A stretch of DNA of 64,000 nucleotides from Pristiophorus japonicus (Eukaryota), in the NCBI RefSeq assembly GCF_044704955.1, contig NC_091984.1:146940001-147004000 (forward strand), written 5' to 3'. The notes beneath the pieces were generated by a model, which did no database searches, was not told where the DNA came from, and worked only from the letters and a program-made list of their open reading frames with translations. Made by a program: the position numbers and the translations under genes. This document shows, in pieces, positions 1 through 55,960 of this stretch; position 1 is the first letter of the stretch; every line of letters starts with the position of its first letter.

Positions 1-1998
1 TTTCTTTCTTCAAATTAGGTTTTGTATTTTACACGGAGGGCCCGTAACTCCATAAAGTTGTTAATTTAAAATTTAAATCCTTTTTTTGTTTTGAGCTAGA
101 AGCTTTCTTAAAAGGCATTCTTTATCTCATTCCGAGACTAAATTTATGTCTTTCAATCCAATGTAATCAATCATTGCACGTTTTCTTTCGACAAGTAAAT
201 TCTTTTTTTTTTTAACCACCGTGACCATGTATTTATTATGTTTTACTCAACAAACCTATCCTTTGTACATTTCCGAGCTCCGTAACTTATCATCCGAATA
301 AATCCACACCTGCGTTTCTAATTTAAAATGTCTTAAAACTTTCCACATACAGAACAACACTACAAAGGGTTAACTAAAATAAACAGACACTTGCATTCCT
401 CTTCCAACCAGGCTTTCAGAAACATGACAACATAAAAATTCATTCCGCAGTTACAAAATCACACAGGGACTCTCACTCAACGACCAGACATTTACAACAG
501 TCTCTCTTCTTTCCTTTAAAATTTTGGATCCATTGAAACTTTCAAGGAATTCATAGTTTTATCTAAATAATTCCTCACATAACTTTTGTAGTGGACAACC
601 GGTATTGTTTTTTTTTTCCGTTCCTTCACCCACCATTCCCGTTAGGTTGCTGACAGGTCCTACCCTGCTCTAATCATTTTCTCGATTAGTTTCACTTGCT
701 TTTCCGCCAGATGGCGGGTAATGGACCCTTCTGATCCCCACTCGAGTTTACTTGTTTTCATGGTCATTCCTGGGTAGGACTAGTACCGTTAGGAATCTAC
801 TCTCAGAGGTCCGCTTCCTTCCCAGCGCAACTTGGAGTAGACCGTCTCCTAGCTACTGTCAGGTCACAAGTTCTGCTGTTACACAAACTTATACAATTCT
901 TAAAACGCGTTTAACCAATTTCCCGCAGTGCTCTACGTATCCTTAACGACTACCTACCACCGCTCGGCCCATTGGTCCGACCCTGTTCACAGGTTTGGAT
1001 TCCGTTAGCCACTGTACACCGCTTGGTTCTACCCTGGGGTGTATTTCAAATTACTCTGCTGGGTCCGGAAGATGTCTTTCAGTATCACGATCCCACGGTC
1101 TAAGTGTGTTCCCGACGCCTACTTGGTTCCTGGCCGTCACTTGGGACAAAAGTCCTCTTAATTCAGACGCAGGCTAGGCGTTTGAGATATTAGATCATCT
1201 CCTCGTGTCGATCAACCAGCTTCCACCTTCTGCACCCTTTATAATTAAAAATCGTTTTTTTATACTCACCCGGGCTTTTTTCAAGGGCGCCCAGCGACTC
1301 CGGGGAATCCTGCCGACTATGCCATTGTTAGCGTGAATGTTTTCTCAGAAGAATCACTCAACACTCAGAGTCGGTTCCAACGCCAATGCAGCCTTTATTA
1401 AAGCTCAGCGGGGAGGAAGTCTCAGGACTGTATCCAGGCTTCTCTCCACTGAACAAAGGTTTTCATGGATCTTTATATGTTTTACAACAGTTTACTACAG
1501 TTACATACAACAGTTTACTACAGTTACATTAGACCAATAGCATTAGTCTCTAAACGTAAAGTGGCTCATGTGTTGCCAAGAGATGTGTTGCTAAGGGGTG
1601 TGTTGCTAGGGATGACTCATGTGTCTTGTAACATGGCCTGGGCCTCTCTTATCTTACTGTCCTTGGAAGCTGGCATTGGGTAGCCTCCTTATTAGAGTTA
1701 CATATTCGGTTCTTGTCAGCTCGGGCTGATTCATGCCCTCGTTATGTGATGTAGGCCCCTCTTATCTCTATTTCTCGGGGCTCTGCTGTGTGGAGTTACA
1801 ATGGTTTGTTATAGTTATCTTGTATTCAAGGCAGTCCTGGCAGTGGGCCTCACAGGGTTATTGCTCGGTCTGCCTCAGTCAATAGTTCACAGCTTGACTA
1901 CCTGATTTCCCATCATGCCTGGGCAGCCATTTTATGTGTGGCCACTTTAAACTTATATGAGTTTAGATATATTCAGCAGGTGCATAATGCCTACAACA
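1..1998 (-). mobile_element. LTR element A2: 5' LTR (1326-1998), PBS and leader, running off the left edge; same family as A1
   Basis: 1326-1998 is a diverged reverse complement of the LTR at 6435-7164 (TGTTGTAGG...CTAACA). 1-800 is a reverse-complement homologue of 1999-~3160. Confidence 0.85.
1307..1324 (-). promoter_or_regulatory. Primer binding site, tRNA-Ser
   Basis: Minus strand TGGCATAGTCGGCAGGAT, 1 nt from the LTR end; one mismatch to the complement of the vertebrate tRNA-Ser 3' end. A splice donor CGG|GTGAGT follows at 1269. Confidence 0.85.
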
Positions 1999-2031: not shown

Positions 2032-2247
2032 ATGGCCATGAAAGCAAGTAAACTCGAGTGGGGATCAGACGGGTCCATTACCCGCCATCTGGCGGAAAAG
2101 CAAAAGAAACTAATCGAGAAAATGATTAGAGCAGAGTGGGATACTCAGGACCTGCCAGCAACCCAACGGGAATGGTGGGAGAAGGAACGGAAAGTCAAAA
2201 AGAAAAAAAAGGCTGTGGTCTTGATACTGCGAGCCCATGTAAATTAA
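2032..2247 (+). pseudogene. Possible gag (matrix-like) N-terminal stub of element A
   Basis: First ORF after the leader, also present at ~610-770 on the minus strand in A2. Assignment rests on position only. Confidence 0.35.
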
Positions 2248-4280
2248 CATAGGAAGTTAATCAATAAAAGAAACTGACGGTGATTGTCTTAAGTGAAGTA
2301 TGGAAGAGGAATAGAGCCAGCCAAAACAATTAATAGGAAAGAAGAGAGATTTTTGTGAACGTCTGTTTTAAATGAGAAGTGCCTGTGTGATTTTTGACTG
2401 CGGAATGAATTTTTTATGTTTTCATGTTCCGAAAGCCTGGTTGGAAGAGGAATGCAAGTGTCTGTTTATTTTCAAAACAGAGAGAAAGTCTTTTTTAACC
2501 CTTTGTAGTGTTGTCCTGTATGTGGGAAGTTTTAAGACATTTAAGTTAGAAATGCCGGTGTGGATTTATTCGGATGATTCGGATGATAACTTACGGAGCT
2601 AGGAAATGTACAAAGGATAGGTTTGTTGAGCAAAAGATAAAAAAATACATGGTCCCGGTGGTTAAAAAAAAGAATTTACTTGTCGAAAGAAAATATGCAA
2701 TGATTGATTACATTGGATTGAAAGACATAAATTTAGTCTCGGAATGAGACAAAGAATGCCTTTTAAGAAAGCTTCTAGCTCAAAACAAAAAAAAAAGGTT
2801 TTAAATAAAGATTGAAATTACAAAGTTTGAATTGGGATTTTGAGGTATTCAGAGAAGGCACAGAAAATACTGAGGTGGATTCAAAAAAGAAAGAGATTAA
2901 ATTAAATTTGATCAGGTCAAACTCCTGGGCGAGTGGCGAGCTATCTGTGAAGGTGTAAAAGGAACTTTTGGAAAATTTTGGGATAACTAAAAGCAGCCCT
3001 TAAACCCTCAAAGCTGGACTCCATTCCAGTTATGGAGAAAAAGAAAAAGATAAAGACGCCACTTTGAAAGTAAACAAATGATTTTAAATTAACAACTTTA
3101 TGGAGTTACGAACCCTCCGTGTAAAATACAAAACCTAATTTGAAGAAAGAAAAAAAAAAGATGTAACGGACTAAATAAGTGCTGAAAAGAAAAAAATGTG
3201 TTTGTGATGGAAAAATACATAACTTACTAAATACTAGTTGATGTTTGCTGTGAAAAAGATATTGGTTTAATTAGAAGAAAAAAAATTGGAAGAGGTAAAA
3301 AACACTCGACATGGATTCGAATTTTAAATTATGAGAAAGTTTCAATGCAGTTTGAAAAGATTTCGAAAATGGACAGTGTTTATCAAGAAAAGTCCCGAAC
3401 AGTCTAAACAAGCAGGAGGGTTTTGAAGATAACGAGGAGAAAGAGAGAAATTTAAAATAAAACAAAATTGAATTTCAGTAAACAATATTGCTATTAAAAA
3501 TGTGTGGTCTCGTTTTATATCAATTTAAAAAAAAAAGATTTCTTTGGCAAGTGCTTGAATTAGATGTTAAGAAAACATTGGAGTTTTAACGGATTCCTAA
3601 TTTCTAAGCAAATTTGAAGGCACAAAGACTTTTTTTTTCAGATGATTACGTGAAGTCACGTAATGACATCAGGTCTTCTTACAAACCTGGAAAGGAGTTA
3701 ACCCTTTCCATTGACAGCCGTTTGATACTGAATATTCTTAATAGAAAAAAAAGACTCACCTAACAGAGGAAACAAAAATAAAAACAGAACTAGCTTATGT
3801 AATAATACTTGCCTGATACAATAAAGAAATAGATACTCAATAAAACAAATTAAAAGCTAAGATAAACAGGCTGGAAGAGATAACGGGACGAGACGGATAG
3901 TGCAGTGAGCAGCCATAGCACCATCACCTATGGCAATAGAGCCAATGTACCCCACGGTGGGTAGGTGTAGTCCACAAACCCAACCTAACGGTAAAGCAGA
4001 CAACGATGTTTGGAGGAATAATGGTGGCATTGGTGTTGATTGGAGTTTGTTATAATATGGGTCATCGTGCAGGCTCGAGCACAGAAGGCTCAAACGCAAA
4101 ACCGACGGCAGCCCAGACAGGGCCATGAAGTGATAGAGATGGTACGACTATAAAGAATATGGTTAACCTAATCCTTACCTCCGATTCCACAGAGTGACAG
4201 CGACACAAGTAGATCAGAACCTAACACCTGGTGACGACCAGGCTATCTGTTTAAAATTTTCAGGTAAAACACTCACCAAG

Positions 4281-6258
4281 ATGGGACCGCAGTGGTGACT
4301 CCGACTCTGGGGATTCATGATACTGGGAACCTCAAGACCCACGCAAACACTGGATGATACCAACGGATTGCAGCGCACTCAGGAAATAAACAACAACATG
4401 AACTATGGAGTCTTGTTTAATTTAACGGATGGAATGTGCATCCCAGCAGCCAAGGACTGGAGCAAGGACAGGACTTATTTTAATGCATGGTTACAAGTAA
4501 ATCCTAAGAACCGGGTATGTGTACAGTGCTTCACGGGTATAAGGAGCTGCTGCATTAAACGGAGGGATGTCAAAGGGCCCGATGAATGTACTTTCGGCAT
4601 AATTTGCACGCCTCCCGGACAGTCCCAGCAATCAGTCATCCGCAAAAAGGGAGTGGGGCTGTGTGGGTACTACAAGGAGGTGGGGGCGGCTGCAATATCA
4701 TTGTATGTGTGCTTCTCACCCCATCCGACACCGCGCCCCATAACAACCACTACATTGTCCGAGGAACTACCTTGTCCCATAACTATTAAGAGACCAGAAA
4801 ATGGGATTGTAATGTACAACGAAGGGGAATTATTGTATAATAATGTTCAACATGAAATTGTGCCTGTCCTGATCAATATTTCAGGCATCCAGATGCCGGA
4901 ATACTGTACGGAACAGTCAAGGAAAATGTACAATGTATTAAGTAAAGTTGTAATGCAGCAGGCAGCCGATGCAATGGGTGCCAGTAGATTCCGAGGACAG
5001 GGGTAAGCCCCCAGGATAAAGAGCGGAATAGTTAATGATGTTGCTACCGGTTTCAATACAGGGACCTCCGTAGTAAACTCGATAGATATACAAGGGTTAA
5101 ATGAGAGGGTGGGACAGCTTAGAGGGGTGATGAAGGGGTTATTAGAGAGGGTGGAGCAAAACCAGGAAGACCAAGCCAACCTAGGAAAGGAGGGTGCCGA
5201 AATCCAGTTGTATGGCATCTCAGTCCTGGAAGCTCATGTCAAAACCATCAATCACCTCATTGATAGAGAAAAAGAAGATACAGGAAAGCAAAGACAGGGG
5301 CAACTCTGTCACGCTTATGGTCTGTGGATGGTGGGACAGATCCGCCACAATCTCGACCAGATCCAACGCGGGGAAGTACCCGATTGGATAGGCAGTTCAC
5401 ATCTGGCTCAGTTGGCTAACCAGAGGGGGATACTGGATAATTGTACTCTGAAGGGACTGACCTGAGTATACCCAGCAATTCCAGATTGCCAGATGGGTAG
5501 GAATACTGGGATAGGGATAGTCCTGATGATCCCTATAGCCACGCCGGACTCAGGGCCGTTCCCCCTATACCAACTGGAGAATATCGGAGTAATACGGGAA
5601 AATGTCTCCATACGTTACTACCTGACCACCACCTCCGCCATTCGTCGAAACAACATACTTACTGGGATTTCCCTAACAGATTGCAAGCAAAGGGGGGAAA
5701 TCACAGTATGCCCTCACCCGGTAGGCCGAGGTGAGCTAGACGAGTGCGGGTTTAACCGAACCGATGGGTGTGTACTAGAAATAGTGCCCGCACACAGGCA
5801 CTTCGCGAGGGCAGGCTACGGAGGGAAGGGAAGATACTGCGTCTCTACCACAGAGTGTTCATAATGACTTGCAGTGCGCTATACCACAGCCAAACTTTTG
5901 CTTTACACCACTACGACCTGCCGCGATCGGGCAAGCGCATATCACCCAGGTTAGGTGGCGGAAGCCCGAAGTTATTGATGTCACCGATCAGCTCCATGAT
6001 CATTTGCAGGATTATGACGAGCCAGAGCAGGTCCCTATCCCACATCTAACCGAAGTATTACGAGAATTGAGGCTCAGAGTGGGTCAATCCGTAAAGCTCT
6101 ACCACCAACTGCAAACTAAAATCAAAGTACTGGAAGAAGATATCGATGTAGACTTACAAAGTCAGAGTTGGTGGAGAAAGGTCTGGGACTGGGGAATAAA
6201 TGTGAACATCCATCCTTGGATTCGAATAATTTCACACATACTGGTTGGGATACAATAA
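4281..6258 (+). pseudogene. env: Lokiretrovirus-type envelope (Mononegavirales F-like class I fusion protein), disrupted
   Basis: Acceptor TTTTCAG| at 4263, ATG 4281, signal-like start, Cys-rich N-terminal part, degenerate cleavage site RIKS|GIVNDVATGFNTGTSVVNSIDIQGL, heptad region, Cys-rich region, second heptad, WWRKVWDWG and a TM start. In-frame stops near 4296, 5004 and 5463 and a frameshift near 5860. No CKS-17/CX6CC motif. Confidence 0.75.
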
Positions 6259-6434
6259 AGGGGCAGGAGGATTTGGCCTTTGTCAATTTGATTTCAGCAA
6301 CCGGGACTCCTGAAACCACGTGACTGGCCAGCATGTTGAGGCAGGGAGTACCGGGCCGTGCACAAAATCTAATTAAAATAGGGCGGTCGGTTAAAGGGGG
6401 ACTAGGACTAGTCCCTTTACCGAAAGGAGGGAAT

Positions 6435-7164
6435 TGTTGTAGGCATTAGGCACCTGCTGAATATATCAAAACACTAGGCATTAGGCACCTGCTGAATATA
6501 TCTAAACTCATATAAGTTTAAAGTGGCCACACATAAAATGGCTGCCCAGGCATGATGGGAAATCAGGTAGTCAAGCTGTGAACTATTGACTGAGGCTGAC
6601 CGAGCAATAACCCTGTGAGGCCCACTGCCAGGAATGCCTTGGATACAAGATAACTATAACAAACCATTATAACTCCACACAGCAGAGCCCCGAGAAATAG
6701 AGATAAGGGGGGCCTACATCACATAACGAGGGCATGAATCAGCCCGAGCTGACAAGAACCGAATATGTAACTCTAATAAGGAGGCTACCCAAAGACAGCA
6801 CCCAAGATAAAGGGGCCTGGACAATGTTACAAAATACATGAGTAATTCCTAGCAACACACCCCTTAGCAACGCATCTCTTGGCAACACATGAGCCACTTT
6901 ACGTTTAGAGACTAACTCTATCTATTGGTCTAATTGAATCTATAATCAGTATGATTGGATAGTATCCAGCTGAAATGGGCTGATGTAACTGTAGTAAAGA
7001 ACTATTGTAAAACATATAAATATCGATGAGTTTCTTTGTTCGGCGGAAAGAAGCCTGGATACAGTCCTGCGACTTCCTCCCTACTGGCGTTAATAAAGGC
7101 CGCACTGGCGTTGGAACCGACTCTGAGTGTTGAGTGATTCTTCTGATAAACTCTAACACTAACA
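6435..7164 (+). repeat. 3' LTR of A1
   Basis: TG...CA ends, preceded by PPT; AATAAA near 7092; short internal duplication near the 5' end. Confidence 0.9.
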
Positions 7165-8166
7165 GTGTCAAGCCCCCTCATAATCTTATATGTTTCAATA
7201 AGATCACCTCTCATTCTTCTGATTTCCAATGAGTCGAGGCCCAACCTACTCTACCGTTACTCATAAGTCAACCCCCTTATCCCTGGAATCAACCAAGTGA
7301 ACCTTCTCTGAACTGCCTCCAAAGCAAGTATATCCTTTCTTAAATATGGAAACCAAAACTTTATGCAGTGTTCCAGTTGTGGCCTCACCAATACCCTGTA
7401 TAACTGTAGCAAACACTTCCCTACTTTTATACTCCATCCCCTTTGCAATAAAGGCCAAGATTCCATTGGCCTTCCTGATCACTTGCTATACCTGCACACA
7501 AACCTTTTGTGTTTCATGTACCAGGAACCCCAGGTCACGCTGTACTGTAGCACTTTGTTATTTTTCTCCATATAAATAATAACTTGCTCTTCGATTCTTT
7601 GCTGGATTTTAAAAGCTTTCCAATCTTCTGCCCTCCCACTAGTTTTGGCCACATTGTATGCCCTTGTTTTTAATTGGATACCATCCTTTATTTCTTTAGT
7701 TAGCCATGGATGGCTATCTTTTCTTTTACACCCTTTGCTCCTCACTGGAAGATATTATTCTTGAGAATTATTAAATATCTCCTTAAATATACGTCACTGT
7801 TCATCAACCGTCCTAAATTTTAATCTATTTTCCCAGTCCACTTTAGCCAACTCTGCCCTCATACCTTTGTAGTCTCCTTTATTTAAGCTTAGTACGCTGG
7901 TTTGAGATTCAACTTTCTCACCCTCCATCTGAATTTGCAATTCAACCATGTTATCATCACTCATTCCAAGGGGATCGTTTACTGGGAGATTGTTTATTAA
8001 TCCTGTCTCATTACACTGGACCAGATCTAAGATAGCCTGTCCCCTGGTTGGTTCTGTTACATACTGCTCAAGGAACCCATCCCTTATGTCGTCGATGAAC
8101 TCTTCTTCAACGCTACCCTGACCAATTTGATTTGTCGCATCAATATGGAGGTTAAAATCACCCATT
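7165..8166 (-). mobile_element. CR1 LINE fragment, internally deleted
   Basis: ORF2 pieces: GDFNLHID endonuclease motif, and LYRVLVRPQLEHC / RRMRGDLIETYKI C-terminus. Confidence 0.9.
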
Positions 8167-8889
8167 ACAAGTCATACCACAACAACTTCCAGCGCGAGCT
8201 GCTCCACGTGAGCAACGGCTTCGAGGTGGGCGATTGGGTGATGTCATCAGGACCCAGGTCGCCATTTGGAGCGTGGGCAGGAGCATCAGCTGGGCCTAGA
8301 TAAAGGAGAGAAGCGGGAAGGTCATGGCGGAGGTGTGGCAAGTGATTGAGACGGAGGAGCGATGAGGGATCATGGCTGAGATTCGGTATGTGATCGTGGC
8401 AGAGGTCCGGCAAATGTTTAGTGCGGAGGTGCGGTGGGAGACTGTGGCAGAGGTCAGGCTGATGTTTGATGCAGAGGTGCGGCGAGAGATCGTGGCGGAG
8501 GTCAGGCGAATGTTTGGTGCAGAGGAGCTGTGAGAGATCGTGGCAGAAGTGCGACTAATGAGGGTTCGGAACCCAAAAGAGCCGAGGGCCCAGGGGCAGC
8601 ACGGGCCTGCCCACACTGCGATATGTGTGCGCACTAGATCCATGCAGCAGAGCAGGTCTCCAGTCGTCCTGGTTTACCCTTGCCATTGGATAAAGGCCTA
8701 GCTCTTTCAAGCCCGTGTGGTGGCTGATGTGCAACAGTCACCACATGTTAAAGAAAATCTACACATAGGCATCTTCCACCCCCTCAATTGCCGTTCAGGA
8801 CTAGAATATCGGGTTCTTCATTGAGACATCTCTGAACTCATTTGGAAGCAAGTCATCCTCGTTCGAGGGATCACCAAAGATGATGATGA
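8167..8889 (+). mobile_element. RTE-tailed non-autonomous retroposon with internal ~48-bp tandem repeats
   Basis: Ends GGAAGCAAGTCATCCTCGTTCGAGGGA...(GAT)n, like the RTE 3' ends at ~48270 and ~60290; 48-bp repeats at ~8395-8550. Confidence 0.55.
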
Positions 8890-9221: not shown

Positions 9222-9555
9222 GCTATTGGTGGACCAATAGGAAGGAGCCATGTTTCCTGGTCCCTATTGGGGGACCAATAGGAAGGAGCCATGCTTCCTC
9301 GTCCATATTGCAGGACAGATAGGAAGGAGCTTAGTTTCCTGGTCTAATTGGAGGACCAATAGAAATGAGCCATTTTTCCTGGTCTCTATTGGGAGACCAA
9401 CAGAAAGGAGCCATGATTCCTGGTCTCTATTGGGGAACCAACAGGAAGGAGCCATATTTCCTGGTGCCTATTGGGAGACCAATAGGAAGGAGCCATATTT
9501 CCTGGTCCCGATTGGGGAACCAATAGGAAGGATCTATGTTTCCTGGTCACTTTTG
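9222..9555 (+). repeat. 41-bp minisatellite, block 1
   Basis: Unit CCAATAGGAAGGAGCCATGTTTCCTGGTCCCTATTGGGGGA, about 8 copies. Confidence 0.9.
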
Positions 9556-12500
9556 GGGAAGTGTTTGCTAGTGCTGTTGGGGAGGAGTTAAACTAATGTG
9601 GCAGGGGGATGGGAACCAATGCAGGGAGACAGAGGGAAACAAAAAGGAGACAAAAGCAAAAGACAGAAAGGAGATGAGGAAAAGTGGAGGGCAGAGAAAC
9701 CCAAGGCAAAGAAAAAAAAGGGCCAATGTACAGCAAAATTCTAAAGGACAAAGGGTGTTAAAAAAATAAGCCTGAAGGCTTTGTGTCTTAATGCAAGGAG
9801 TATCGTAATAAGGTGGATGAATTAACTGTGCAAATAGATGTTAACAAATATGATGTGATTGGGATTACAGAGACGTGGCTCCAGGATGATCAGGGCTGGG
9901 AACTCAACATCCAGGGTATTCAACATTCAGGAAGGATAGAACAAAAGGAAAAAGAGGTGGGGTAGCATTGCTGGTTAAAGAGGAGATTAATGCAATAGTT
10001 AGGAAGGACATTAGCTTGAATGCTGTGGAATCTATATGGGTAGAGCTGCAGAACACCAAAGGGCAAAAAACATTAGTGGGAGTTGTGTACAGACCTCCAA
10101 CCAGTAGTAGTGATGTTGGGGAGGGCATCAAACAGGAAATTAGGGGTACATGCAATAAAGGTGCAGCAGTTATCATGGGTAACTTTAATATGCACATAGA
10201 TTGGGCTAACCAAACTGGAAGCAATACGGTGGAGGAGGATTTTCTGGAGTTCATAAGGGATGGGTTTCTAGACCAATATGTCGAGGAACCAACTAGGGGG
10301 GAGGCCATTTTAGACTGGGTGTTGTGTAATGAGAGAGGATTAATTAGCAATCTCGTTATGCGAGGCCCCTTGGGGAAGAGTGACCATAATATGATGAATT
10401 CTGCATTAGGATGGAGAATGAAACAGTTAATTCAGAGACTATGGTCCAGAACTTGAAGGGTAACTTTGAAGGTATGAGGCATGAATTGGCTACGATAGAT
10501 TGGCGAATGATACTTAAGGGGTTGACTGTGGATGGGCAATGGCAGACATTTAGAGACCGCATGGATGAACTACAACAATTGTACATTCCTGTCTGGCATA
10601 AAAATAAAAAAGGGAAGGTGGCTCAATCGTGGCTATCAAGGGAAATCAGGGATAGTATTAAAGCCAAGGACGTGGCATAGAAATTGGCCAGAAATAGCAG
10701 CGAACCCGGGGACTGGGAGAAATTTAGAACTCAGCAGAGGAGGACAAAGGGTTTGATTAGGGCAGGGAAAATAGAGTACGAGAAGAAGCTTGAAGGGAAC
10801 ATTAAGACGGATTGCAAAAGTTTCTATAGATATGTAAAGAGAAAAAGGTTAGTAAAGACAAACGTAGGTCTCCTGCAGTCAGAATCAGGGGAAGTCATAA
10901 CTGGGAACAAAGAAATGGCAGACCAATTGAACAAGTACTTTGGTTCGGTATTCACTAAGGAGTACACAAACAACCTTCCGGATATAAAAGGGATCAGAGG
11001 GTCTAGTAAGGAGGAGGAACTGAGGGAAATCCTTATTAGTCGGGAAATTGTGTTGGGGAAATTGATGGGATTGAAGGCCGATAAATCCCCAGGGCCTGAT
11101 GGACTGCATCCCAGAGTACTTAAGGAGGTGGCCTTGGAAATAGCGGATGCATTGACAGTCATTTTCCAACATTCCATTGACTCTGGATCAGTTCCTATGG
11201 AGTGGAGGGTAGCCAATGTAATCCCACTTTTTAAAAAAGGAGGGAGAGAGAAAACAGGGAATTTTCGACCGGTCAGCCTGACCTCAGTAGTGGGTAAAAT
11301 GATGGAATCAATTATTAAGGATGTCATAGTAGCGCATTTGGAAAGAGGTGACATGATAGGTCCAAGTCAGCATGGATTTGTCAAAGGGAAATTATGCTTG
11401 ACAAATCTTCTGGAATTTTTTGAGGATGTTTCCAGTAGAGTGGACAAGGGAGAACCAGTTGATGTGGTATATTTGGACTTTCAGAAGGCTTTCGACAAGG
11501 TCCCACACAAGAGATTAATGTGCAAAGTTAAAGCACATGGGATTGGGGGTAGTGTGCTGACGTGGATTGAGAACTGGTTGTCAGACAGGAAGCAAAGAGT
11601 AGGAGTAAATGAGTACTTTTCAGAATGGCAGGCAGTGACTAGTAGGGTACCGCAAGGTTCTGTGCTGGGGCCCCAGCTGTTTACATTGTACATTAATGAT
11701 TTAGATGAGGGGATTAAAAGTAGTATCTCCAAATTTGCGGATGACACTAAGTTGGGTGGCAGTGTGAGCTGTGAGGAGGATGCTATGAGGCTGCAGAGTG
11801 ACTTGGATAGGTTAGGTGAGTGGGCAAATGCATGGCAGATGAAGTATAATGTGGATAAATGTGAGGTTATCCACTTTGGTGGTAAAAACAGAGAGACAGA
11901 CTATTATCTGAATGGTGACAGATTAGGAAAAGGGGAGGTGCAATGAGACCTGGGTGTCATGGTACATCAGTCATTGAAGGTTGGCATGCAGGTACAGCAG
12001 GCGGTTAAGAAAGCAAATGGCATGTTGGCCTTCATAGCGAGGGGATTTGAGTACAGGGGCAGGGAGGTGTTGCTACAGTTGTACAGGGCCTTGGTGAGGC
12101 CACACCTGGAGTATTGTGTACAGTTTTGGTCTCCTAACTTAGGAAGGACATTCTTGCTATTGAGGGAGTACAGCGAAGGTTCACCAGACTGATTCCCAGG
12201 ATGGCGGAACTAACCTATCAAGAAAGACTGGATCAACTGGGCTTGTATTCACTGGAGTTCAGAAGAATGAGATGGGACCTCATAGAAACGTTTAAAATTC
12301 TGATGGGTTCAGAGACGTTAGATGCAGGAAGAATATTCCCAATGTTGGGGAAGTCCAGAACCAGGGGTCACAGTCTAAGGACAAGGGGTAAGCCATTTAG
12401 GACCGAGATGAGGAGAAACTTCTTCACCCAGAGAGTGGTGAACCTGTGGAATTCTCTACCACAGAAAGTTGTTGAGGCCAATTCACTAAATATATTCAAA

Positions 12501-12678
12501 AAGAAGTTGGATGATGTCCTTTCTACTAGGGGGATCAAGGGGTATGGCGAGAAAGCAGGAATGGGGTACTGAAGTTGCATGTTCAGCCATGAACTCATTG
12601 AATGGCGGTGCAGGCTAGAAGGGCCGAATGGCCTACTCCTGCACCGATTTTCTATTTTTCTATGTTTCTATGTTTCTA
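9556..12678 (+). mobile_element. 5'-truncated CR1 LINE (ORF1 end plus disrupted ORF2)
   Basis: Endonuclease and RT ORFs (KFADD), (TTTCTATG)n tail; closely similar to the full-length copy at 42635-47253. Confidence 0.95.
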
Positions 12679-12790
12679 TTACCAGTAGGAAGGAGCCAGG
12701 TTTCCTGGTCTTTATTGGAGGGCCAATAAGTAGGAGCCATGTATGTTGGTCTCTTTTGGGGCACCAATAGGAAGGAGCTATAATTCCTGG
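12679..12790 (+). repeat. 41-bp minisatellite, block 2
   Basis: The same unit resumes right after the CR1 tail. Confidence 0.85.
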
Positions 12791-15096: not shown

Positions 15097-15647
15097 TGTG
15101 GATATCTGAACGGAATATATGGAATTAAGGACAGTAAAGTAAACGGGATATATGAAAATGTATAAGCCATGGAAGAATAGCTGGGAGAATGTCAGATTGC
15201 AAATAGTGCAACATCAGCATAACTAACAGTCTTTCTCAAGGTTTCAAGTCACTAATCCTGCCAATAACATCTAATTGTAACATGAAATAAATCTGCAGAA
15301 TTGCAAGGTCTCAGTTAATAGTCACACCACTAGATTGAAACATTTAGAGGCAATGCTTGAGCTTTCATAAAAACATCTCATATAGATTGACTAATGAGTA
15401 GCTGAGTTAGAATGTCAATCTAATTGTATTTTGTTATCTGATTTCAAAACTGTATAACTGTTGACGCTTTATGATGTAACTTCACCTATCCGTAGGGAGT
15501 GTGTACGCTCTATCCAGAGAGTATATCTTCTGTCTGATAGGTCTTACTGGCCGGTAATAAAGATTGCTTTGTTCAAAGCACAAGAGGTATTCGATTCAGT
15601 AATTTTACTGAACCAGATTGAGGTAAAAGAATCCAGGAATTTACATT

Positions 15648-15665
15648 TGGTGTCAGAAGTGGGAT
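15648..15665 (+). promoter_or_regulatory. Primer binding site, tRNA-Leu
   Basis: TGGTGTCAGAAGTGGGAT, 2 nt after the 5' LTR. Confidence 0.9.
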
Positions 15666-17407
15666 CTCAATGGACGATTGCCGAAAACTTGCGAATTAAG
15701 AGCCAGACTAGCCTTGGACGAGACGAGGGGAAAGTGGCCACTGGAGTGAGTATGATTTCAATACTGCTCCAGTTTCGCCCGGTTTCAAAAGTCTGAGGAA
15801 AGTTTAGCCACTCGCTGGTTCTCAGGTAGTGTCTGAACGAGATCCAGGACAATCTGATGAATACCTTTCAAACGTAGAATAGGGATAGAGATAGGGAAAT
15901 TGCGCGATGACGCAAACCAAGCGGCGACTTGGAAAGATAGTTAGAGCTAGATAGGGATAGATGATCAATCATGGATCCAAAAATGAATAGGAAAGAAAAG
16001 AGACTCTTGTGAATGTCTGTTTAAATGAGAAATGCTTCTGTGATTTTTACTGTAAAAAAAAAGCTGGGGAGTTGTGGTTTGTTTTATCTCAAACAGAATG
16101 AAAGTTTGTTTTAACCCTTCATAGTGTTGTCCTGTATGTGGGAAGTTTAAGAGTGTGAACCTTACTAAAATACTTATATTCGGATGATAAGTTACGGAGC
16201 CAGGAAATGCACAAAGGATAGGTTTGTTAAAAAAAAAAAGAAAAAATGACATGGTCCCGGTGGTTAAAAAAAAAGAAAAACTTGTTGAAAGAAAACATTC
16301 AGAGAAGGCACAGCAAAACAACTGAGATGGATTCAAAAGGATTCAAAAAAAAATTATATTAAATAACACGACCTTGAGGCTGGAACAATTGAGATAACGA
16401 AAAGCAGTCCACAGCCTTTGTGCCAGACTTCTCTCTAGTCATGGAAAAAAAAGTAACGTACTAAATAGGTGCTGAAAGAAAAAAATGTTCTGAGATTTTA
16501 AATTATGGAAAAAATTCCACTGCAGTAAAAAAAAATACAATCACTCCTGTCCAGTTGGCAGAAAAACTCCATTAAATTAGGGCTTTCATTGACTGATTGA
16601 ATTTAAACTGCGCAGTAACGCGAAAGGATAGGGAAATTTGGAAACTGAAAGAAATTAATTGAGGCTCATAAGAAATCAAAATTAGAAAATTAGGCTCACA
16701 GGGAATAAAATGGGGATTTAAATAGAGGATAGGTGTTCAATTCAGGTACGACGTCGACCTTGTATATCACTTGACCCGTCGAGGCTCTGATTGAATTTAA
16801 AAACCCACAGCAACTCGGAAGGTAGGGCCGACGCGAACGTGCAGCGGTGCAAACGACGCGAACGTGCAGCGACACTAATGCGTAGTGACGCAAACGCGCA
16901 GTGACGCAGACGCGCAGTGACGCCGACGCGTAGTGAAGCAGAGGCGCAGCAACGCGAATCGCGAAAGTCAGTGCTAATGTCAGTAAGTCTTTGTAAGTCT
17001 TAAGTGTTTAGAGTTTTAAGTATTTAAATCGCGCGGCGATGCGAACCGCGCGGCGACGCGGGTAAGTGTTAGAAGTCCTTGTTTATCTTTTAAAGTTTTA
17101 AGTATCTTAACTCACGCGGCGACGTGAGCCACGGGTCGACGCGGATTGCGTGGCAACGTGTACTGCGAGGAAATGCGGATTGTGCGGCGACGTGAACTGC
17201 GGGGTGACGTGGGAGTTTTAAGAATCGCGCGGCGACACGAACCGCGCGGCGACGTGGCTAAGTGTTAGCATTAGTAAAGTTTGTTTATTTGGAGTTAGTT
17301 AAAGTCAGTGTTAGTTTCTGTAAAGTCTGTGTCTATTTTTAAGTTTGTTTAAATTGCACGACGACACGAACGCGTAACGACACGGTAATACGCGAGGCAG
17401 TGTGAAA

Positions 17408-18740
17408 ATGGGTAATCAGTTGGATAAAACAACGGATGCGGATAGTCCGCTACAAAAGCTATGTGAGGAATTCCCTGAAAGAGCTGAAGACTTTAGAAAA
17501 TTATCAGGAGCCCTAAACAAATTATTGGGAGATGATCAATGGCCTCTAGGTGGCACTAGAAGCATAGAGGTAGTAAAAAAATAAGCACAGGGATTGTTAA
17601 AAAAAAAATTAATTAAAAGATGCATCACTTCTGTCAAGTTGGCAAACAAATGCTATTAAATTAGGACTTGCATTGACAGAGGGAACACATTTTAAAACTG
17701 TAGACGTCTTTAAAAAAAAAAGAATGTGCGCACGAGAAACTTACTAAGAGATCCTCTGGGACCTCTGAGAAAGGTATTGACCAACTACGTAGCAAAAATG
17801 GCTGGCTTTGTGTTAACCGAGGCTGATGATGAAATTGATGAGTGACCACTGACTCAGCGCCCAACGGCGCCTCCCGCACCCCCTGGCCTCTTGCTCCAGT
17901 CCTCTTCCCAACACCCTCCACCTAACACTCCGGTAAAAAGAGTTAGGAACAACCCCATATCACCAAAGCAACAAACCCAAACTGACTCCTCATCCTCTGA
18001 TAGCGATTCGGATCCCCAGTTTACAAGCAATATAGCCGAAAAAACCAGATCTCATACTCGAAAGGGCAGAACTATATCTCGACATCACAGACAGTCCCGT
18101 AAATCTTCTAGTCAATCTACCAGTCCAAGTTGTGAAAGACATAGCAAACACCCCCGCCGATCAAGACGCAGAACTGTCAAGCAGTCAGACAGCTCCGAAA
18201 CATCCTCCGACCTAGAAATGATTTCCAAGATCCCAAAGTCCCGACACCAATTCCCTGTCAGACCAATGCCAAACCCTGATGCACAACAAGCTGCAGACCA
18301 CCCCACTATCCGGACAAATGGAGAGGACAGTTAGATATTATTGGCAGGAAAAGAAAAGGGAGGGGGGAGGTGCGCCCCCAACCCGGGTCAAGACTGAATA
18401 CGTGACTAGAAAGGAAGAGCCATCTCGGGAGGAAGGATCAATAGAACCGTAGTGTTGCATACAGGATTGGATGGATAAGCAAGGATACGGTTATACTAAA
18501 CAACCAAACGGCCCGAGCCCTGCTAATAAACCTCCCTATTGTCCCCGGCATGGTATGGGAAGAGGCCGGGACTGGGTAAGAGGAATTGACTGTTTTAATT
18601 GTGGGCAGGAAGGACATTGGAATAAAAATTGCCCCTACCGTCAGCATGGAAAAGGAAGAGGAGGGGGGCAAGGGGGGAGAGGAGGACCTTACACTAACTT
18701 CTCCCAGAACAACCCATTTGGTCAATTGTCCCCCGATTGA
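17408..18740 (+). pseudogene. gag: ERV B gag, with frameshifts and capsid largely missing
   Basis: MGNQ myristoylation-type start, WPLGGT matrix motif, CCHC knuckle CFNCGQEGHWNKNC. Confidence 0.85.
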
Positions 18741-21140
18741 CTACGCAGCTTGATTGTGCAGGGATCCTCCCCGGACGACGAACCCATTCTGAATGAGTGG
18801 CAACCCTTTTTGATAGATACGGGAGCCTTCTTGTCTTCTGTACAATCAAAGCTTAAACTCCCTGCCTCTACTGAAACACAGGAACTTTCAGGATTCCTGG
18901 GACAAATCTCGACATTCCCAGTGTCAGAACCGGTTAAAATGGGTTACCAGGAAGAATCGGTGGAACATCGAGTTGTTATCACAACCAATCTGGACTGTAA
19001 CTTGATGGCTAGAGACCTCCTCTGCAAATTCCAGTTGCATTTGAAGTGTGGAGATGATGGGATTATTGTAAAACAGGAAACCCTTAAGCGGCAGTATTAT
19101 ACCACTAGAACCCCTCAGTGGTGGTCTCTGGACCTGCCGCAGGCACCCTATCACGTGACCCTAGCATACGATCCCAGTGGAAAGAATCGGGACCTGCAGA
19201 ACTTTTATCAGGATCACGAAGGGGAAGTGAAGGGAATTCTATTAAGGGCTAGAGTGATTGGACTGGAAAGAGAGGCAGATTTTGTGGAAGTGGATAAGAA
19301 TCTGTGGAAACAGCCCCTAACAATGGCACCGCATATTGCTCGTGAAGTATTAGCCCCTCACCATGCTAAAGATTTGGGAGTTATGGTACGCAAGGCCATA
19401 GATGAGGCTGACCCGACCAGCCGGGATGTGCAAATTTCATGGGGACCCCGAGAAGGTCTTAACGACTCTACAGCATCATACTGGCTCGGACATACCTGAC
19501 TATGTGGATCCTCATGTGTGGGCAGAGAACCCCTCCCAAGTGGGTTATACTCCCATTGATCCGATTGAGATCCCAGTGCAGGGCAATGTGGACTGGCCCT
19601 CTATCCGACAGAACCCACTGAAATCACAGGCAATCCTAAACTAACCTTTCGGCACTGTACTGTAATTAATCCGGCCTGTTTTCTTACTGAGCCACCCCAA
19701 GATGAGGAAGAACCCAGTCATGATTGCTTATCTTTAATTTAAGAGGCCACATCAGTCAGGGAAGATTTAGTTGATGTACCAATGGAAGATCCAGACTGTA
19801 TTCTTACTGAACCAACCCAAGATGAGGAAGAACCCAGTCATGATTGTTTATGTATGTTGACGGAAGTACTTCTATTAATCCAGAAGATACACGAATCTCA
19901 GGATACGCCATAGTAAACCAGGAAAATCAGGTCTTGGAATCTGCCGCTTTTGAAACCGCCTATTCTGCTCAACAAGCTGAACTATTCGCCCTCACCCAAG
20001 CCTGTATCTTGGCCAAAGATCTCAAAGTCAATATCTATACCGACTCTAGGTATGCCTTTGGGGTGGCCCATGATTTCGGACAATTATGAAAAAATAGGGG
20101 ATTCCTAACCTCACAGGGGAATGAGATATCTCATAAACAGTTAGTATCTGATTTGTTACAAGCCCTCATGTTCCCCAAACGCATTGCCATTGTCAAATGT
20201 ACCGCCCATACTACCGGAAATTCTCTGGTTGATATAGGGAATCGTTGTCCTGACCAAGAGGCCAAACAGGCCTCTCGTGACCAACAGATGGTAGTGCCCA
20301 AAATTATGAGTCAGACTAAAAATCCTGCGAAGGATAAGTTAGCCTCGGAAAAACCAATGCCAACCATCCAAGATGTTATAAAAGCACAGGAGGACGTTCC
20401 TGAAAAAGATAAACTGTTGTGGAAATATTATGCATGTACTTATGACAATGTTTCTAAACTCTGGACCACTCCCGCGGAACAGACTTGCATGTCTGACAAG
20501 TTGGCTCTGAGTTATTGAATGTATGCATTTTGCTACTCATTGTGGAGCAAGGACCACGAGTGACACACTTTTGGCTACTTGGGGGCACCCTAGACTCCAG
20601 GCGCTCACCCAGAACATCAGTAGTCGTTGCCTGGTTGGCCAGCAACATAATCCAGGGAAGGGAGTCCCCTGTGATTGGGGTAAAAAGCCCCTACCCGAAG
20701 GTCCCTTTGAGACATTTCAGTTGGACTACATTGAGTTGCAAAAAGTTCAGTGTTACAAATATGTGTTAGTAATAGTAGATGTGTTTAGCAGATGGATTGA
20801 AGCCTACCCTAACCTGGACAATAAGACTCAGACTGTTGTTAAGGTGTTAATGAGGGAAATTGTTCCTAGATATGAGATCTCAGCTAGACTGTTGACCACC
20901 TATGTTCTTTCTCTGACTCAGGCTCTGCGACTAGTTCACAACCAGGTTCAAGATGCTCACCTCGACCTCCCAGTTTTACCCGAATTGTCCCTCGTGGCAC
21001 CAGGGAAGTATGGATTCGGAAGGGATTAGAGCCACAATGGGAGGGTCCTTTTCAGGTGTCACTCACTACCCCCACTGCAGCCAAGGTAGAGGGGAAAAGT
21101 GCCTGGGTTCACCTGCACCACTGCAAGCTCATCACCATTT
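18741..21140 (+). pseudogene. pol: ERV B pro-pol remnant: protease, 2H-like insert, RT nearly all deleted, RNase H, partial integrase
   Basis: FLIDTGA; YVDGS...AQQAEL...IYTDSRYAFGVAH; LVIVDVFSRWIEAYP. No LPQG or YxDD found. Confidence 0.9.
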
Positions 21141-21337
21141 AAACAAATTTTGCTGGTTAGTCTAATTCCTGTTTCTGTTCCAGATCTCCTCTTCCCCATA
21201 GCTGAACAAGGCAGTTGAAGGAGGATCAGTTTGAACTTTTACCCGTAAGACAGCCAAATACACTGACGGAGACCTGAAGAAGGGAAACGGGAAAACAGAA
21301 CTCTTTTTATCAGCTAAATAATTGGACTATTTATAAG

Positions 21338-22076
21338 ATGAGACTGTGTCTGTATGCCACTGTCTGCATAATAGTGTTGTTATATGACAGTTTTGGCGCA
21401 CGGGAAGGAAGACAAAGGCGAGAGCTCCATGTAAACACCTTTTTGTATATATCTTACGTTTATGTGGAAAAAGGGCACTTCACTAGATGCTGGGTGTGTT
21501 CACATATCCCTATACATTCCAAAGGGGGAATTCCTTTGCGCACCGTTCCACTGACCCTAACTGAAACTGTTAGATGGATTCAAAGAAACGATATTGGAAC
21601 AGGTAGCTAACCGCACTGCTGAGGCTCTGGAGGGCATCACAGCTGAAATGGTAGTGATAAGGACCATAGCATTACAAAACCGAATGGCCCTCGATTACCT
21701 GTTAGCTGAGAAAGGGGGAACGTGTGCCCTGATAGGATCTGAATGTTGCACTTACATTCCTGATAGTTCAGAAAACATAACCCACCTTGCCGATCACATA
21801 AGGAGGGAGGTGAAGAAGTTATCCACACCAGCAAAAGAACTTAGCAGGTTTGATTGGTTTCTGGGTGGATCTTGGAGATCCTATCTAATAATAATTACCT
21901 GCTGTTTGATTGTTGGTTGCCTTAACCTCTGCTGTAAAGTAATGATGACAAGGTTAGCAGACCCTCTTGTGGTCAAGGGTTCCCGGGTTATGATCCAACA
22001 AACTAGAGAACTACTCAACAATAATATGATTCTGGAAAAGGAGTGTGAACGGATGAATGCAATACTCCAAGAATGA
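21338..22076 (+). pseudogene. env: ERV B gamma-type env, most of SU and the fusion peptide deleted
   Basis: Acceptor at 21183, signal peptide, CWVC motif, then ISD LQNRMALDYLL and CX6CC (CALIGSECC), and a TM segment. Confidence 0.92.
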
Positions 22077-22664
22077 TCCTAAATGTTATCATAGAATGAT
22101 AAAAGGAGGGATGTGGATATCTGAACGGAACATATGGAATTAAGGACAGTAAAGTAAACAGAATATATGAAAATGTATAAGCCATGGAAGAATAGCTGGG
22201 AGAATGTCAGATTGCAAATAGTGCAACATCAGCATAGCTAACAGTCTTTCTCAAGGTTTCAAGTCACTAATCCTGCCAATAACATCTAATTGTAACATGA
22301 AATAAATCTGCAGAATTGCAAGGTCTCAGTTAATAGTCACACCACTAGATTGAAACATTTAGAGGCAATGCTTGAGCTTTCATAAAAACATCTCATATAG
22401 ATTGACTAATGAGTAGCTGAGTTAGAATGTCAATCTAATTGTATTTTGTTATCTGATTTCAAAACTGTATAACTGTTGACGCTTTATGATGTAACTTCAC
22501 CTATCCGTAGGGAGTGTGTACGCTCTATCCAGAGAGTATATCTTCTGTCTGATAGGTCTTACTGGCCGGTAATAAAGATTGCTTTGTTCAAAGCACAAGA
22601 GGTATTCGACTCAGTAATTTTACTGAACCAGATTGAGGTAAAAGAATCCAGGAATTTACAACAC

Positions 22665-29060: not shown

Positions 29061-31863
29061 CCGCGGAGGGGAGGGTTCTCAGGGGACCAGGGTGGGGGAT
29101 GGCGGTCGCTGAGTGGGCTCGGGGACCAGGGCACCAGCCAGTCGCCACTCTGCACACACTCTGTTCCCTCTGTGTCTCAGTCCAGTGTTGCAGTGAGGAG
29201 TTTAGGATCTGAGGCTCAGGCTGGTTCTCCGGCACCATCAACGCCCTGTTGGGTAAGGGTCTTAAGGGTTAAGAACATAAGAAATAGGAGCAGGAGTCGG
29301 CAACCTGGCCCCTCAGCCTGCTCCGCCATTTAATAAGATCATGGCTGATCTGATCTTGGACATAGCTCCACTTCCCTGCCCGCTCCCCATAACTCTTTAT
29401 TCCCTTATCGCTCAAAAATCTGTCTATCTCCACCTTAAATATAATCAAAATCCAGCCTACACAGCTCTCTAGGGCAGAGATTTCCACAGATTTACAAGCC
29501 TCTGAGAGAAGAAATTCCTCCTAAACTCAGTTTTAAATGGACAGCCCCTTATTCTGAGACTATGACCCCGAGTACTATTTTCGCCTATGAGTGTAAATAT
29601 CCTCACTGCATCCACCTTGTCACCCTCTCATTATCTTATATGTTTCGATAAAATCACCTCTCGTTTTTCTGAACTCCAATGATTATAGGCCTAACCTACT
29701 CAACCTATCCTCATAAATCAACCCCCTCATCTCCAGAATCAATCTAGTGAACCTTCTCTGAACTGCTGCCAATGCAAGTATATCCTTTCTTAAGTATGGA
29801 TACCAAAACTGTACACAGTACTCCAGGTGTGGCCTCACCAATACCCTGTATAGATGTAGCAGGGTTTCTCTGCTTTTATACTCTATCCCCCTTGCAATTA
29901 AGGCCAAATTTCATTTGACTTCCTGATTATTGCTGTAACCGCATACTAACTTTTTGTGTTTTATGCACAAGGTCCCCTTTGCAATTTTTCTCCATTTAAA
30001 AATTAATTTGCTTTCCTCTTCATTCTGCCAAAGTGGAAAACCTCACATTTTCCCACATTACACTCTGTAAGGGGTGGTTTGCAGGGGGTCAGCTTTCCCT
30101 TCTGACCTTATATGAACGGTTCTGAATCGCTCCCACACCCTTGGTTCTAGACACTGGAATTATGAAGGGACTGTGACAGACTTGGACAGACAATCGGTTT
30201 CAAGGTCGGAAGCAGGTATGTCTTTATTGTGTTTACAAAGAAGTAAAAGGCATACCTTTAATAACACACACAGACCAATACACACTGAGGGGTACAACAC
30301 ATTGAATAAATTGTACAATTACAGTCTGTGGGGAAAAGAATACAGCTTAAACTCTAAATGGGGTAAAAAGGCGAATGCAGATACATTTACACAAGTTATC
30401 CCAGCCTCCCTCCTCCCAATTCCCCTAACTAACTAAGTTATAGCTCTGTGGGGTTCAGGGGCTATACTCACCAATCCCTTTTGACAGCTGCCCGTGAATC
30501 GTGGTTTCGGGGTTCGCTGCACTTGGCCTTCTAGGCGAGCCGTACCCCGGTCGGAGGAGAGGACTTCGGACTGCCTAGTCTTCGGTTGGGGTGTGCCCGT
30601 TGATGCGGTAAGTTGCGTTTTGGATGTATGGGGTAAGTACCCACTTTCTTTGGTTAGGAATAGTTTAGTTAGTCCCTTTTGGTAATTTCTCACCCGTTGG
30701 TCATTCCGAAGTAGATTGTAGAGTGGAAATAAATGTCGATTCTTCGGTTTTTGTTGAGTTGGTTTTGGTTGGTCGTTTCGCTGGTTGTGGTGGCCCGGGT
30801 TGTCAATTTGGTTGCTGACAACCTTCCGTTTCGTGGACCTCGTGCTCGGTCAGTTCTTGATGAATTCTAGTAGTTTCCTTCACTGCTCCATTTCTTCACT
30901 CCCCACCTCCGGCTGTCTGTGTCTGTGTTCCAGTCTGTGCTCTGCTTCTCTCCTGTCTTCTGCTAGTTTCTGTGTTCTGCTAGTCTGCGTGCTGCTCCTT
31001 GCTGGTCTTTCCTTGTAAAACTGGGGGATAGATATATTCCAAAAAAAGGCTCTGTTATCTCCCATCAAATCTCTTGGGCTCTGTTTAAACTGTACTGTCC
31101 ACTGATTTTCAAATGTCTCCTTTGTCAGCAGTAACTCGATTAGGGTGTGAGAATGTGCTCTCACTGGTTTTGCATTGTTTTAGAATTGTCCAGTTTCTTG
31201 ACCATGATTTCCATTGTGCTTGATTGGGTAATTCGATTATCTCTTAGAGGGTGAATAGTTCCCCCAGACAGTCTGGGGTCTTTAATACACGAATTTGGCC
31301 CCACCTCCTGTATTTGGTAACTCTCTTTTTTTTTGCAGCCAAAATGTTGTAGAATCTTAAAATTGATATGCTCCTTCCCATAGATGTTTAGGGGATCTCA
31401 AGCTTCTGTAATTTAGGTCCATTTTGAATTCCCTTTCCTATGAGTCCAAACACTGGGGGGGGGTCTCCATGAATGCATCCCCTTTTATCCCCCGCAGGCT
31501 TCGTCTGCCCCTTTAAACTCATTTTAAAAGCCCAGAAAGGGATTCTTCTCCTCTGTAGGGGAAAGGTACCTGGAATCTTTGCGAGATATTGGTAAATTCT
31601 ACATTCCCCCCTGTGATACCATATCACTTATGGTATCATTCTTCGAGGTGAGCAAAGTTCCTGACTCCCAAGAGATAACCTTCCCCATAAATTAGCTAAA
31701 CTAATACCCAAAATGCATTACACTTATGCAACATATCCATAGATGCACACTTTTCCCTTTACAGGTACAAACCTTTTACATTTATACCCTCCCAGCTTGG
31801 AGGGGGTTCAATCACTACAATTGTATTTCAGCACAGTTACATTTCATTTCAGTTACATTATAT

Positions 31864-33708: not shown

Positions 33709-34285
33709 CCCCCGTTACCCTACCAAAGTCATGTTTGTGGGTGGCGAATGCTGCAAGGTGTGCCCGTACATAAGCCTGGTACTCCACTGGGGTGTTACTG
33801 ACCAGTAATTCCAAGTCATAACCCTCCTTTGGCTTCACGGTACACAATGTTTCCTTGGCCCCTTTTTCTGGGATCACTGCCACCTCACCTTCCCTGTCAG
33901 TCACTATGGCGCCCCATAGACAATGGTTCCTGAGATCCACTAGGATCTGGTGGCCAATGATAAAATCAGCTCCCAGGATCCCTTTTCCCTTCTGCTGTCA
34001 TTTCATCAGGACACACTTCCATTTGGTTTTGAGTGTACCTAACTGAATGGTGAGCGGGATGGAAAATGAACCAGTTTGCTCATTGCCTGTGAACCCCACT
34101 AGACTGTACGGGACCCCGTTCGATAGAGGTGAGGTAGCTGGGTTATCTGCATATACAAGGGTGCTGGAAGCAGCAGTATCTAGCAGGTAGGTCCCTTTCA
34201 CTTTCTCCACCTCCATCGTAACGCACGGTCTCTTCCAGGCATCGTACTCTAGGGAACACAGGTGCACAGGCTGCACTGGCCTTAG
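33709..34285 (-). pseudogene. pro: Aspartic protease of C (one stop, frameshift before RT)
   Basis: YLLDTAAS and ILGADF motifs. Confidence 0.8.
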
Positions 34286-36046: not shown

Positions 36047-36099
36047 TTTACTTCATTTCCTGAAACCAGTCTCTCTCTTATCACGTCCCTTGTACCAGT

Positions 36100-42625: not shown

Positions 42626-42740
42626 ACGTAGTTACATAGAAACATAGACATAGAAACATAGAAAATAGGTGCAGGAGTAGGCCATTCGGCACTTCTAGCC
42701 TGCACCGCCATTCAATGAGTTCATGGCTGAACATTCAACT

Positions 42741-45647: not shown

Positions 45648-45724
45648 CTCCTTTCTGTCTTTTGTTTTTGCCTCCTTTTTGTTTCCCTCTATCTCCCTGC
45701 TTTGGTTCCCATCCCCCTGCCATA

Positions 45725-55700: not shown

Positions 55701-55960
55701 ATGGGCGATAAATGGGCGATCAATGGGCGATCAATGGTCAATAAATGGGCAACAAATGAGCGATCAATGGGCGATAACTGGGCGATCAATGGGCGATCAA
55801 TTGGCGATCAATGGGTGATCAATGGGCGATAAATGGGCGATCAATGGACGATAACTGGGCGATCAATGGGCGATAACTGGCCGATCAATGGGCGATCAAT
55901 GGGCGATAAATGGGCGATCAATGGGCGATCAATGGGCGATCAATGGGCGATCAATGGGCC
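52791..55960 (+). repeat. 11-bp satellite (GGGCGATCAAT)n, ~3.2 kb, ~290 units
   Basis: Direct inspection; variant units recur in blocks. Confidence 0.97.

Follow-up and report, generated by a model that had tools for sequence, protein, structure and literature searches.

The region studied here raises the question of how two endogenous retroviruses (ERVs) that differ in their long terminal repeats, primer usage and envelope class come to share an ordered series of sequence blocks. The window, a stretch of 64,000 nucleotides from a genome of 5.9 Gb whose positions are used throughout, contains two copies of one ERV family, A1 and A2, and one copy of a second family, B. A first-pass annotation had ascribed their likeness to a leader module that was exchanged between co-packaged RNAs and that might act as a packaging signal. 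We find the shared sequence to be part of an AT-rich, non-coding segment of 0.3-1.9 kb, termed cassette in the following, which is found in four ERV families of the same genome.

Elements A1, A2 and B in the window

The organization of the three elements is as follows.

1..568, minus strand: A2 cassette, continuing past the window start (locus L091); blastn matches to B and A1, none to cassette-free A parents
569..600, minus strand: B-family gag-start scrap at the 5' edge of the A2 cassette; 29/32 to the cassette-free B locus L198
601..1306, minus strand: own-family leader and gag start of A2; ATG at 767, stop after 35 codons; 91-92% to A parents
1307..1324, minus strand: A2 primer-binding site (PBS), Ser type
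1326..1998, minus strand: A2 5' LTR; A2 LTR pair 97.0% identical
2032..2247, plus strand: A1 gag frame, cut short to 71 matrix codons; in cassette-free relatives it forms part of an uninterrupted gag of 473 codons
2267..4177 (approximate), plus strand: AT-rich A1 cassette in place of the remaining gag and all of pol; core (about 2321-2820) common to B, C and D
4180..6258, plus strand: own-family pre-env region and env-like gene of A1, with stops and a frameshift in this copy
6435..7164, plus strand: A1 3' LTR, from LTR comparison
15097..15645, plus strand: B 5' LTR, 99.1% to the B 3' LTR; 4-bp target duplication
15648..15665, plus strand: B PBS, Leu type
15971..16529, plus strand: B cassette copy, 33% GC, a deleted subset of the A blocks
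16530..17407, plus strand: B matrix fragment (copy of gag nt 208-273), then a second parent-type leader
17408..21140, plus strand: B gag (capsid deleted), protease, RNase H and partial integrase, with RT deleted; gaps against L198
21278..22076, plus strand: gamma-type B env with internal deletion; TLV_coat (Pfam, E 1.5e-7)
22112..22660, plus strand: B 3' LTR, from LTR comparison

Family A is represented a second time by A2, which was inserted in reverse within the leader of A1, where a reading of the junctions reveals a 4-bp target duplication with one mismatch. The coding content of A1 is confined to the 71-codon gag start and the broken env-like gene, and its cassette contains 35% GC compared to 51% in the parent stretch that it replaces. 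In B, the region 17408..21140 contains the Pfam domains zf-CCHC, RVP, RNase_H, rve and MLVIN_C (E 4.4e-14).

The ordered likeness of A1 and B is real. In blastn, its main block (2321-2699/15977-16301) shows 71.9% identity (E 8e-51) and is followed by further blocks at 2847-2907/16297-16364, 3155-3199/16445-16488 and 3321-3351/16495-16526, and the local alignment score of 345 compares to 54.7 +/- 8.2 (maximum 71) in 60 six-base block shuffles. The minus strand of A2 resembles B in the same manner (533-180/15971-16296, 71.7%, E 5e-39; 619-569/17422-17472; blastn). Three motifs quoted in the first-pass annotation are exact in A1 and B, at 2506/16122, 2578/16179 and 2648/16250, with variants in A2, and the reported match of A2 569-596 to B gag 17445-17472 is recovered at 26/28 positions. 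The described differences between the families are equally evident: their LTRs have no blastn match to each other, their PBS sequences differ, and the TLV_coat TM of B env is absent from A env. What had been delimited as a leader module at 2336..3200 does consist of shared sequence, although the non-parental stretch in A1 is larger (about 2267-4177) and, since it starts after the 71-codon gag start, is located inside gag and not in the leader. The cassette of B resembled a leader module because it is followed by a matrix fragment, a second leader and a gag start, an arrangement that reads as a switch back, which provided the gag start again downstream of the cassette.

Several other features of the window were observed. 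The B leader at 16840-17400 contains GC- and CpG-rich tandem repeats with about 19-21 CpG per 150 bases, which differ in number between copies and are missing from B93-type derivatives. The A1 3' LTR and 1.1 kb of its flank (6434-8256) are duplicated upstream (L091 3428-5250, 99.7%) beside a 5'-truncated A1 5' LTR, reflecting either a local duplication of recent date or an error in the assembly. Two young LINE-like repeat copies with long frames (9555-12679 and 42636-45766) are 96% identical and located on opposite strands, and older fragments of the same repeat are numerous across the window. A 1.55-kb direct repeat (30066-31603 and 36121-37670, 97%) flanks long minus-strand frames at 31864-36052 and probably constitutes, together with them, another LTR element. 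Finally, a 3.2-kb tandem array of short period extends from 52789 to 55969.

A filler at the gag position of four ERV families

A 20-mer from the cassette core has 3,031 exact matches in the genome and its reversed control has none. For classification, 70 of the first 71 listed matches on contig C1 were sorted by their upstream LTR and leader, yielding 35 copies in family A, 23 in B, 8 in a family C and 3 in a family D, besides one copy cut by a LINE with A/C-clade pol downstream. Families C and D each have their own LTR, with a Ser-type PBS in C and a Gln-type PBS in D, and the cassette families thus include two of Ser type (A and C), one of Leu type (B) and one of Gln type (D), where we presume the tRNA names from the PBS types. 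In the loci L150 and L151, a B leader is joined to an A env.

The discrete nature and the high copy number of the cassette would be compatible with an independent transposon, such as a SINE or MITE, that entered the ERV families in separate insertions. The annotation had itself named an independent repeat outside LTR elements as the observation that would contradict its proposal; this does not apply, because no sampled copy of the cassette stands free (0/70). There is also no cassette match in the DNA flanking the elements in 235 sequences examined, and the cassette, with ERV scraps along its edges, substitutes for sequence instead of generating a target duplication, which leaves a transposon origin with next to no probability.

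Cassette-free relatives were sought with RT, matrix or capsid frames. Copies without cassette that contain gag, pol and mostly env frames are present in all four families, and they account for 20/20 of the picked loci in C (from 5-kb upstream stretches), 6/8 in A, 4/6 in D and 1/6 in B, with loci chosen for long frames or lower identity and not at random. In blastn, the cassette is absent from all 31 of these parents (20 C, 6 A, 4 D and 1 B), while tblastx returned two matches with E 0.007. Of the ten best RT matches to a cassette-bearing C copy, eight do carry the cassette.

In each of the families A to D, cassette derivatives and a coding-competent relative have LTRs, PBS and leader in common. 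A derivative begins with the LTR, PBS and leader of its own family, to which 15-90 codons of its own gag are usually attached, and continues with the cassette and a 3' part from the same family that consists of env and/or pol pieces. In 9/9 copies examined, the gag frame ends after 15-86 codons, just before or within the 5' end of the cassette. The extent of the replacement differs: the cassette takes the place of matrix and capsid as far as the zinc knuckles in C derivatives, extends from matrix into RT in D derivatives and substitutes for about 60 codons within the B matrix in the locus L180. Cassette copies were amplified as full LTR-bounded insertions with 4-5 bp target duplications and LTR pairs that are 93-100% identical, a range overlapping that of the parents, and their spread was thus recent and in part very recent. 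In each of the four families, the cassette is hence a central-replacement filler that occupies the gag position of defective derivatives. In some C derivatives (L097, L102, L104 and L167), we also observed a second small A-type cassette piece resembling 3198-3333, located about 1.3 kb downstream of the core between remnants of RNase H and integrase, which by its position would represent a second capture.

The proportion of derivatives varies between families. In A, where they predominate, a leader 20-mer has 1,733 matches compared to 59 for a capsid 20-mer. In the first 252 Mb of contig C1, the exact core is found downstream of 46/73 A leaders; of the other 27, one belongs to a parent already identified, and 400-base stretches were sampled from 20, among which 16 contain the module, 4 a core-deleted cassette with one shared junction and none a parent gag. 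As the same core deletion is common to these four copies, no single core motif is required, and the blocks quoted in the first-pass annotation are exactly those missing from this core-less subfamily, which still multiplied. A further A subfamily is young and star-like, with 18 near-identical cores in a tree of the cassette. In B, the exact core is located downstream of 29/70 leaders, and 12 of the other 41 comprise 6 with module, 1 with gag followed by a cassette edge, 1 with plain gag and 4 undecided cases. Complete-type copies remain common in C and D, and in D, where the cassette does not predominate, 4/6 fetched loci are cassette-free and many long gag frames occur among 150 matches. In many D copies, the gag frames are about 590 codons long and the LTR pairs 98-99.8% identical, and this family has been active recently.

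Passage of the cassette between lineages

The reverse transcriptases of the four families define two deep clades, A/C and B/D, with identities of 63% for C-A and 47% for B-D, and of 39% (A-B), 38% (C-B) and 35% (C-D) between clades. Family B carries class I features in form of a gamma-type TM with immunosuppressive domain (TLV_coat) and an MLV-like integrase C-terminus (MLVIN_C), and it is a candidate for an epsilon-like affiliation. When compared to solved structures, C-family RT scores 240 bits with MLV, 185 with foamy virus and 134 with Ty3, and the start of PR-RT in family A scores 103 with foamy virus and 92 with MLV, values that are intermediate.

The env of family A contains an RxKR site, and its ESM features reach 0.93-0.94 to Gypsy/Baculo_F/Fusion_gly clusters at a recognition score of 1544, which is below 2300. 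It has no match in Pfam (PF00523 included) or among PDB profiles, its database relatives are shark proteins in 9/9 cases, and its fold model has a pLDDT of 30.5, which is too low for use. By its language-model features, A env may thus be an F-like class I fusogen, and family A is an unproven candidate for membership of the lokiretroviruses. Like these viruses, family A has an env-like gene with RxKR and F-protein-like features, but it differs by the lack of a PF00523 match, and the hosts listed for lokiretroviruses include no cartilaginous fish (PMC7947760). A copies that bear the cassette and lack gag-pol keep env, with longest frames of 152-656 codons in the six copies checked (window 4299-6258, L106, L111, L112, L188 and L189).

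In contrast to the divergence of the RTs (35-63% identity), the cassette blocks common to the four families match an A reference copy at 81-100% identity, and they are accompanied by hitch-hiking scraps of gag, in agreement with the recombination between unrelated ERV families that had initially been suggested. A scrap of B gag is found at the 5' edge of the cassette in 22/35 A copies including A2 (18 by exact pattern), and a scrap of A matrix at the same edge in 2/3 sampled D copies. Since such scraps are remnants of the gag of earlier hosts, the direction of transfer can be read from them, from B-type to A and from A-type to D. There are several distinct 5' junctions within A and likewise within B, and some junctions hold short shared words, such as 10 nt at the C 3' junction. 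A tree of 73 cassette cores, constructed with a quick method, requires 5 changes of family, compared to a minimum of 4 and a mean of 31.3 upon shuffling. The donor of the bulk of the cassette was not found; its edge scraps are ERV gag, and protein searches with the bulk gave no match.

Joints of this kind have an established mechanism in the template switching of co-packaged RNAs. The cassette would enter a new family by such switching during reverse transcription, and the resulting derivative, having kept its own LTRs, PBS and leader, would be moved in trans by the Gag/Pol of its own family. This combination of interfamily template switching, at least from B-type to A and from A-type to D and with further independent junctions in B and C, followed by a putative mobilization by the family's own proteins via its own leader, is very probably correct. 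Gene conversion between integrated copies is a possible alternative source of the joints.

The sequence could instead be a decayed B-type matrix, or A and B could both have received it by vertical descent from their common ancestor. In L180, the module continues in frame into the remaining B matrix, and gag scraps make up parts of the wider cassette. However, alignment to B matrix stays at the level of shuffled sequences in 4/5 copies and is marginal in L180 (2/300 shuffles as high), and the core has no tblastn match to any gag tested. Vertical inheritance is opposed by parents without module and by RTs that are far more diverged than the module. These readings are largely refuted and we regard them as highly improbable.

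A different exchange concerns the env of family C. Although C is by RT the sister of A (63%), it carries a gamma-type env that is 69-86% identical to B env in TM blocks, as observed in L096, L097 and L102-L105 when compared to 21278-22076, a pattern that suggests an env swap between the clades separate from the cassette.

Putative advantage of the derivatives and relation to known systems

The cassette has 33-36% GC and 11-20 CpG/kb, compared to 48-54% GC and 31-108 CpG/kb in the parent sequence that it replaces. This drop concerns CpG density only, as the observed/expected ratio is barely below that of the parents in A (0.72 vs 0.74) and similar in D (0.56 vs 0.53). Runs of six or more A are dense, with 10 in 1.9 kb of cassette against 2 in 4.9 kb of parent, and there is no excess of long pyrimidine tracts. 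The filler of the mouse element ETn is AT-rich. No reading frame is conserved in the cassette, and its frames have no protein match in Pfam (two frames) or the ESM Atlas, in a word-index protein database (an 84-aa frame, among longer proteins, and a 166-aa frame) or among 1.84 billion protein representatives (a 65-aa core frame), although these nulls are weak evidence because the queries are short and of low complexity.

A covariation and structure analysis, which the first-pass annotation had suggested as a check, provides no indication of a conserved RNA fold. The consensus energy (alifold) of -12.0 lies at the level of column shuffles (-11.6 +/- 3.6, with 25/60 as low) at an SCI of 0.18, none of 26 predicted pairs shows a two-sided change over 20 copies, and z-scores of individual copies are mostly above -1. 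One hairpin folds well in a copy of D (z-score -4.2) and a copy of C (-2.2), and many copies of A and B have lost it by deletion. Rfam returned two sub-threshold chance matches in five loci and none in window 1-23000, with none above gathering.

These results bear on the proposal that the cassette is a shared packaging signal that gives family A, with its F-like env, access to epsilon-like (B-type) Gag/Pol. Packaging across families must have occurred at least occasionally, and the cassette follows the leader directly on its 3' side, a location known for extended packaging signals of retroviruses; the mentioned hairpin could be viewed in the same light. However, the cassette is missing from 31 complete-type parents, including the B parent whose Gag should bind it, the hairpin is missing from many copies of A and B, and the core was lost in a subfamily of A that was amplified. 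Moreover, as family A has gag-pol-env copies of its own with the same LTR and leader, it needs no epsilon-like helper. Among cassette copies, target duplications of 5 bp were found in one of A and two of C and never with B or D, where 9/9 readable copies have 4 bp (judged by eye), a difference that would favour mobilization by the own family. Duplications of 4 bp also occur in cassette copies of A and C and in one A parent, and due to this mixture their length is a weak pointer to the identity of the helper and was rejected as a clean test. A role in packaging is in sum very improbable.

We next consider whether the cassette is a portable RNA element that binds a host factor, rescuing gag-truncated genomic RNA, whatever the helper, either as a shield against nonsense-mediated decay after the premature gag stop or by nuclear export. 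The position of the stop just before or within the cassette in 9/9 copies and the dense A-runs would fit such a role, and a function at the level of the host would explain the portability across unrelated Gags. There is a precedent in RSV, where a 400-nt stability element protects unspliced RNA from a location directly downstream of the gag stop; this element belongs to a competent virus and its likeness to the cassette is one of position (PMC5580461). The lack of an Rfam match, a conserved fold and an excess of long pyrimidine tracts speaks against a specific element, as do the location of the cassette upstream of the gag start in window B and the dispensability of the core in four A copies. 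We thus consider this explanation distinctly unlikely.

Alternatively, the cassette might be a neutral passenger with the same history, in which an abundant defective RNA, frequently co-packaged, passed on its middle part and copy numbers reflect few lucky master loci, in which case any internal deletion would have been amplified equally. The absence of a conserved frame or structure is in line with this account, as are the piecemeal loss of blocks in different subfamilies, the amplification of core-less A copies and the star-like A subfamily. It is less readily reconciled with the repeated and independent fixation of the cassette across four families, at an equivalent functional position and with several different 5' junctions, and with the 20 sampled A copies without exact core, none of which is a cassette-free deletion. 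Since the sample contains no such deletion derivative, the effect of the deletion is inseparable from that of the cassette. Pure hitch-hiking appears unlikely to us, though less so than a specific host-factor element.

The reading that we favour over both assigns the derivatives a putative compositional benefit that is diffuse and not bound to a motif. The swap would drop CpG-rich coding sequence and shorten the genome while keeping all signals required in cis, the result would be less silencing and more RNA per helper particle, and derivatives would outgrow their parents. We propose this advantage tentatively, on grounds of sequence composition. A bolder version, in which the cassette is a selfish RNA module that parasitizes ERVs and whose effect at the level of the host turns each recipient into a drive outcompeting its helper, is rather unlikely. 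If true, it would describe a module that hops between unrelated lineages by template switching and that might act as shield against decay or silencing.

Related replacements are known from other systems. In cattle ERVK C/D, MusD/ETn and KoRV/recKoRV, a central segment was swapped for a piece of an old retroelement with the flanks, gag and env or pol, being kept, and the defective type outcompetes the competent one (PMC10924933). The same text reports a defective majority of 85:15 for cattle ERVK[2-1-LTR] C-/D-type elements, to be compared with about 1,733:59 k-mer matches in family A, and flanking gag and env portions that are kept as in our case; it concerns a single clade with measured preferential mobilization, which in the present families is inferred (PMC10924933). 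For KoRV, at least 16 independent recombinants with the old element PhER are described (PMC6112702). As in the families described here, recKoRV retains its ends and has lost its middle to degraded unrelated sequence, with many independent junctions and remobilized recombinants, but it involves one recipient and an identified donor family, compared to four recipients in two deep clades and a serial hand-over (PMC6112702). Mouse MusD/ETn likewise features a non-coding derivative with the LTRs of its helper, in a single family, and a review mentions more ETn RNA and a stronger epigenetic suppression of MusD (PMC6466679, PMC1331978).

In their organization, the cassette derivatives share the structural features of the recKoRV, ETn and ERVK D-type kind, and they differ from known cases by a single filler that was serially passed across four families of two deep clades. 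Our search of the openly accessible literature found no description of the cassette or of an ERV filler in multiple families. The elements constitute a record of how retroviral lineages with no more than 35-39% RT identity were repeatedly co-packaged and recombined. They also provide, in one genome, four natural pairs of parents and derivatives that contain the same filler and depend on different helpers, with the core-less subfamily as internal control, and the question why centrally replaced ERVs such as ETn, recKoRV and the cattle D-type outcompete their helpers therefore becomes testable by comparison.
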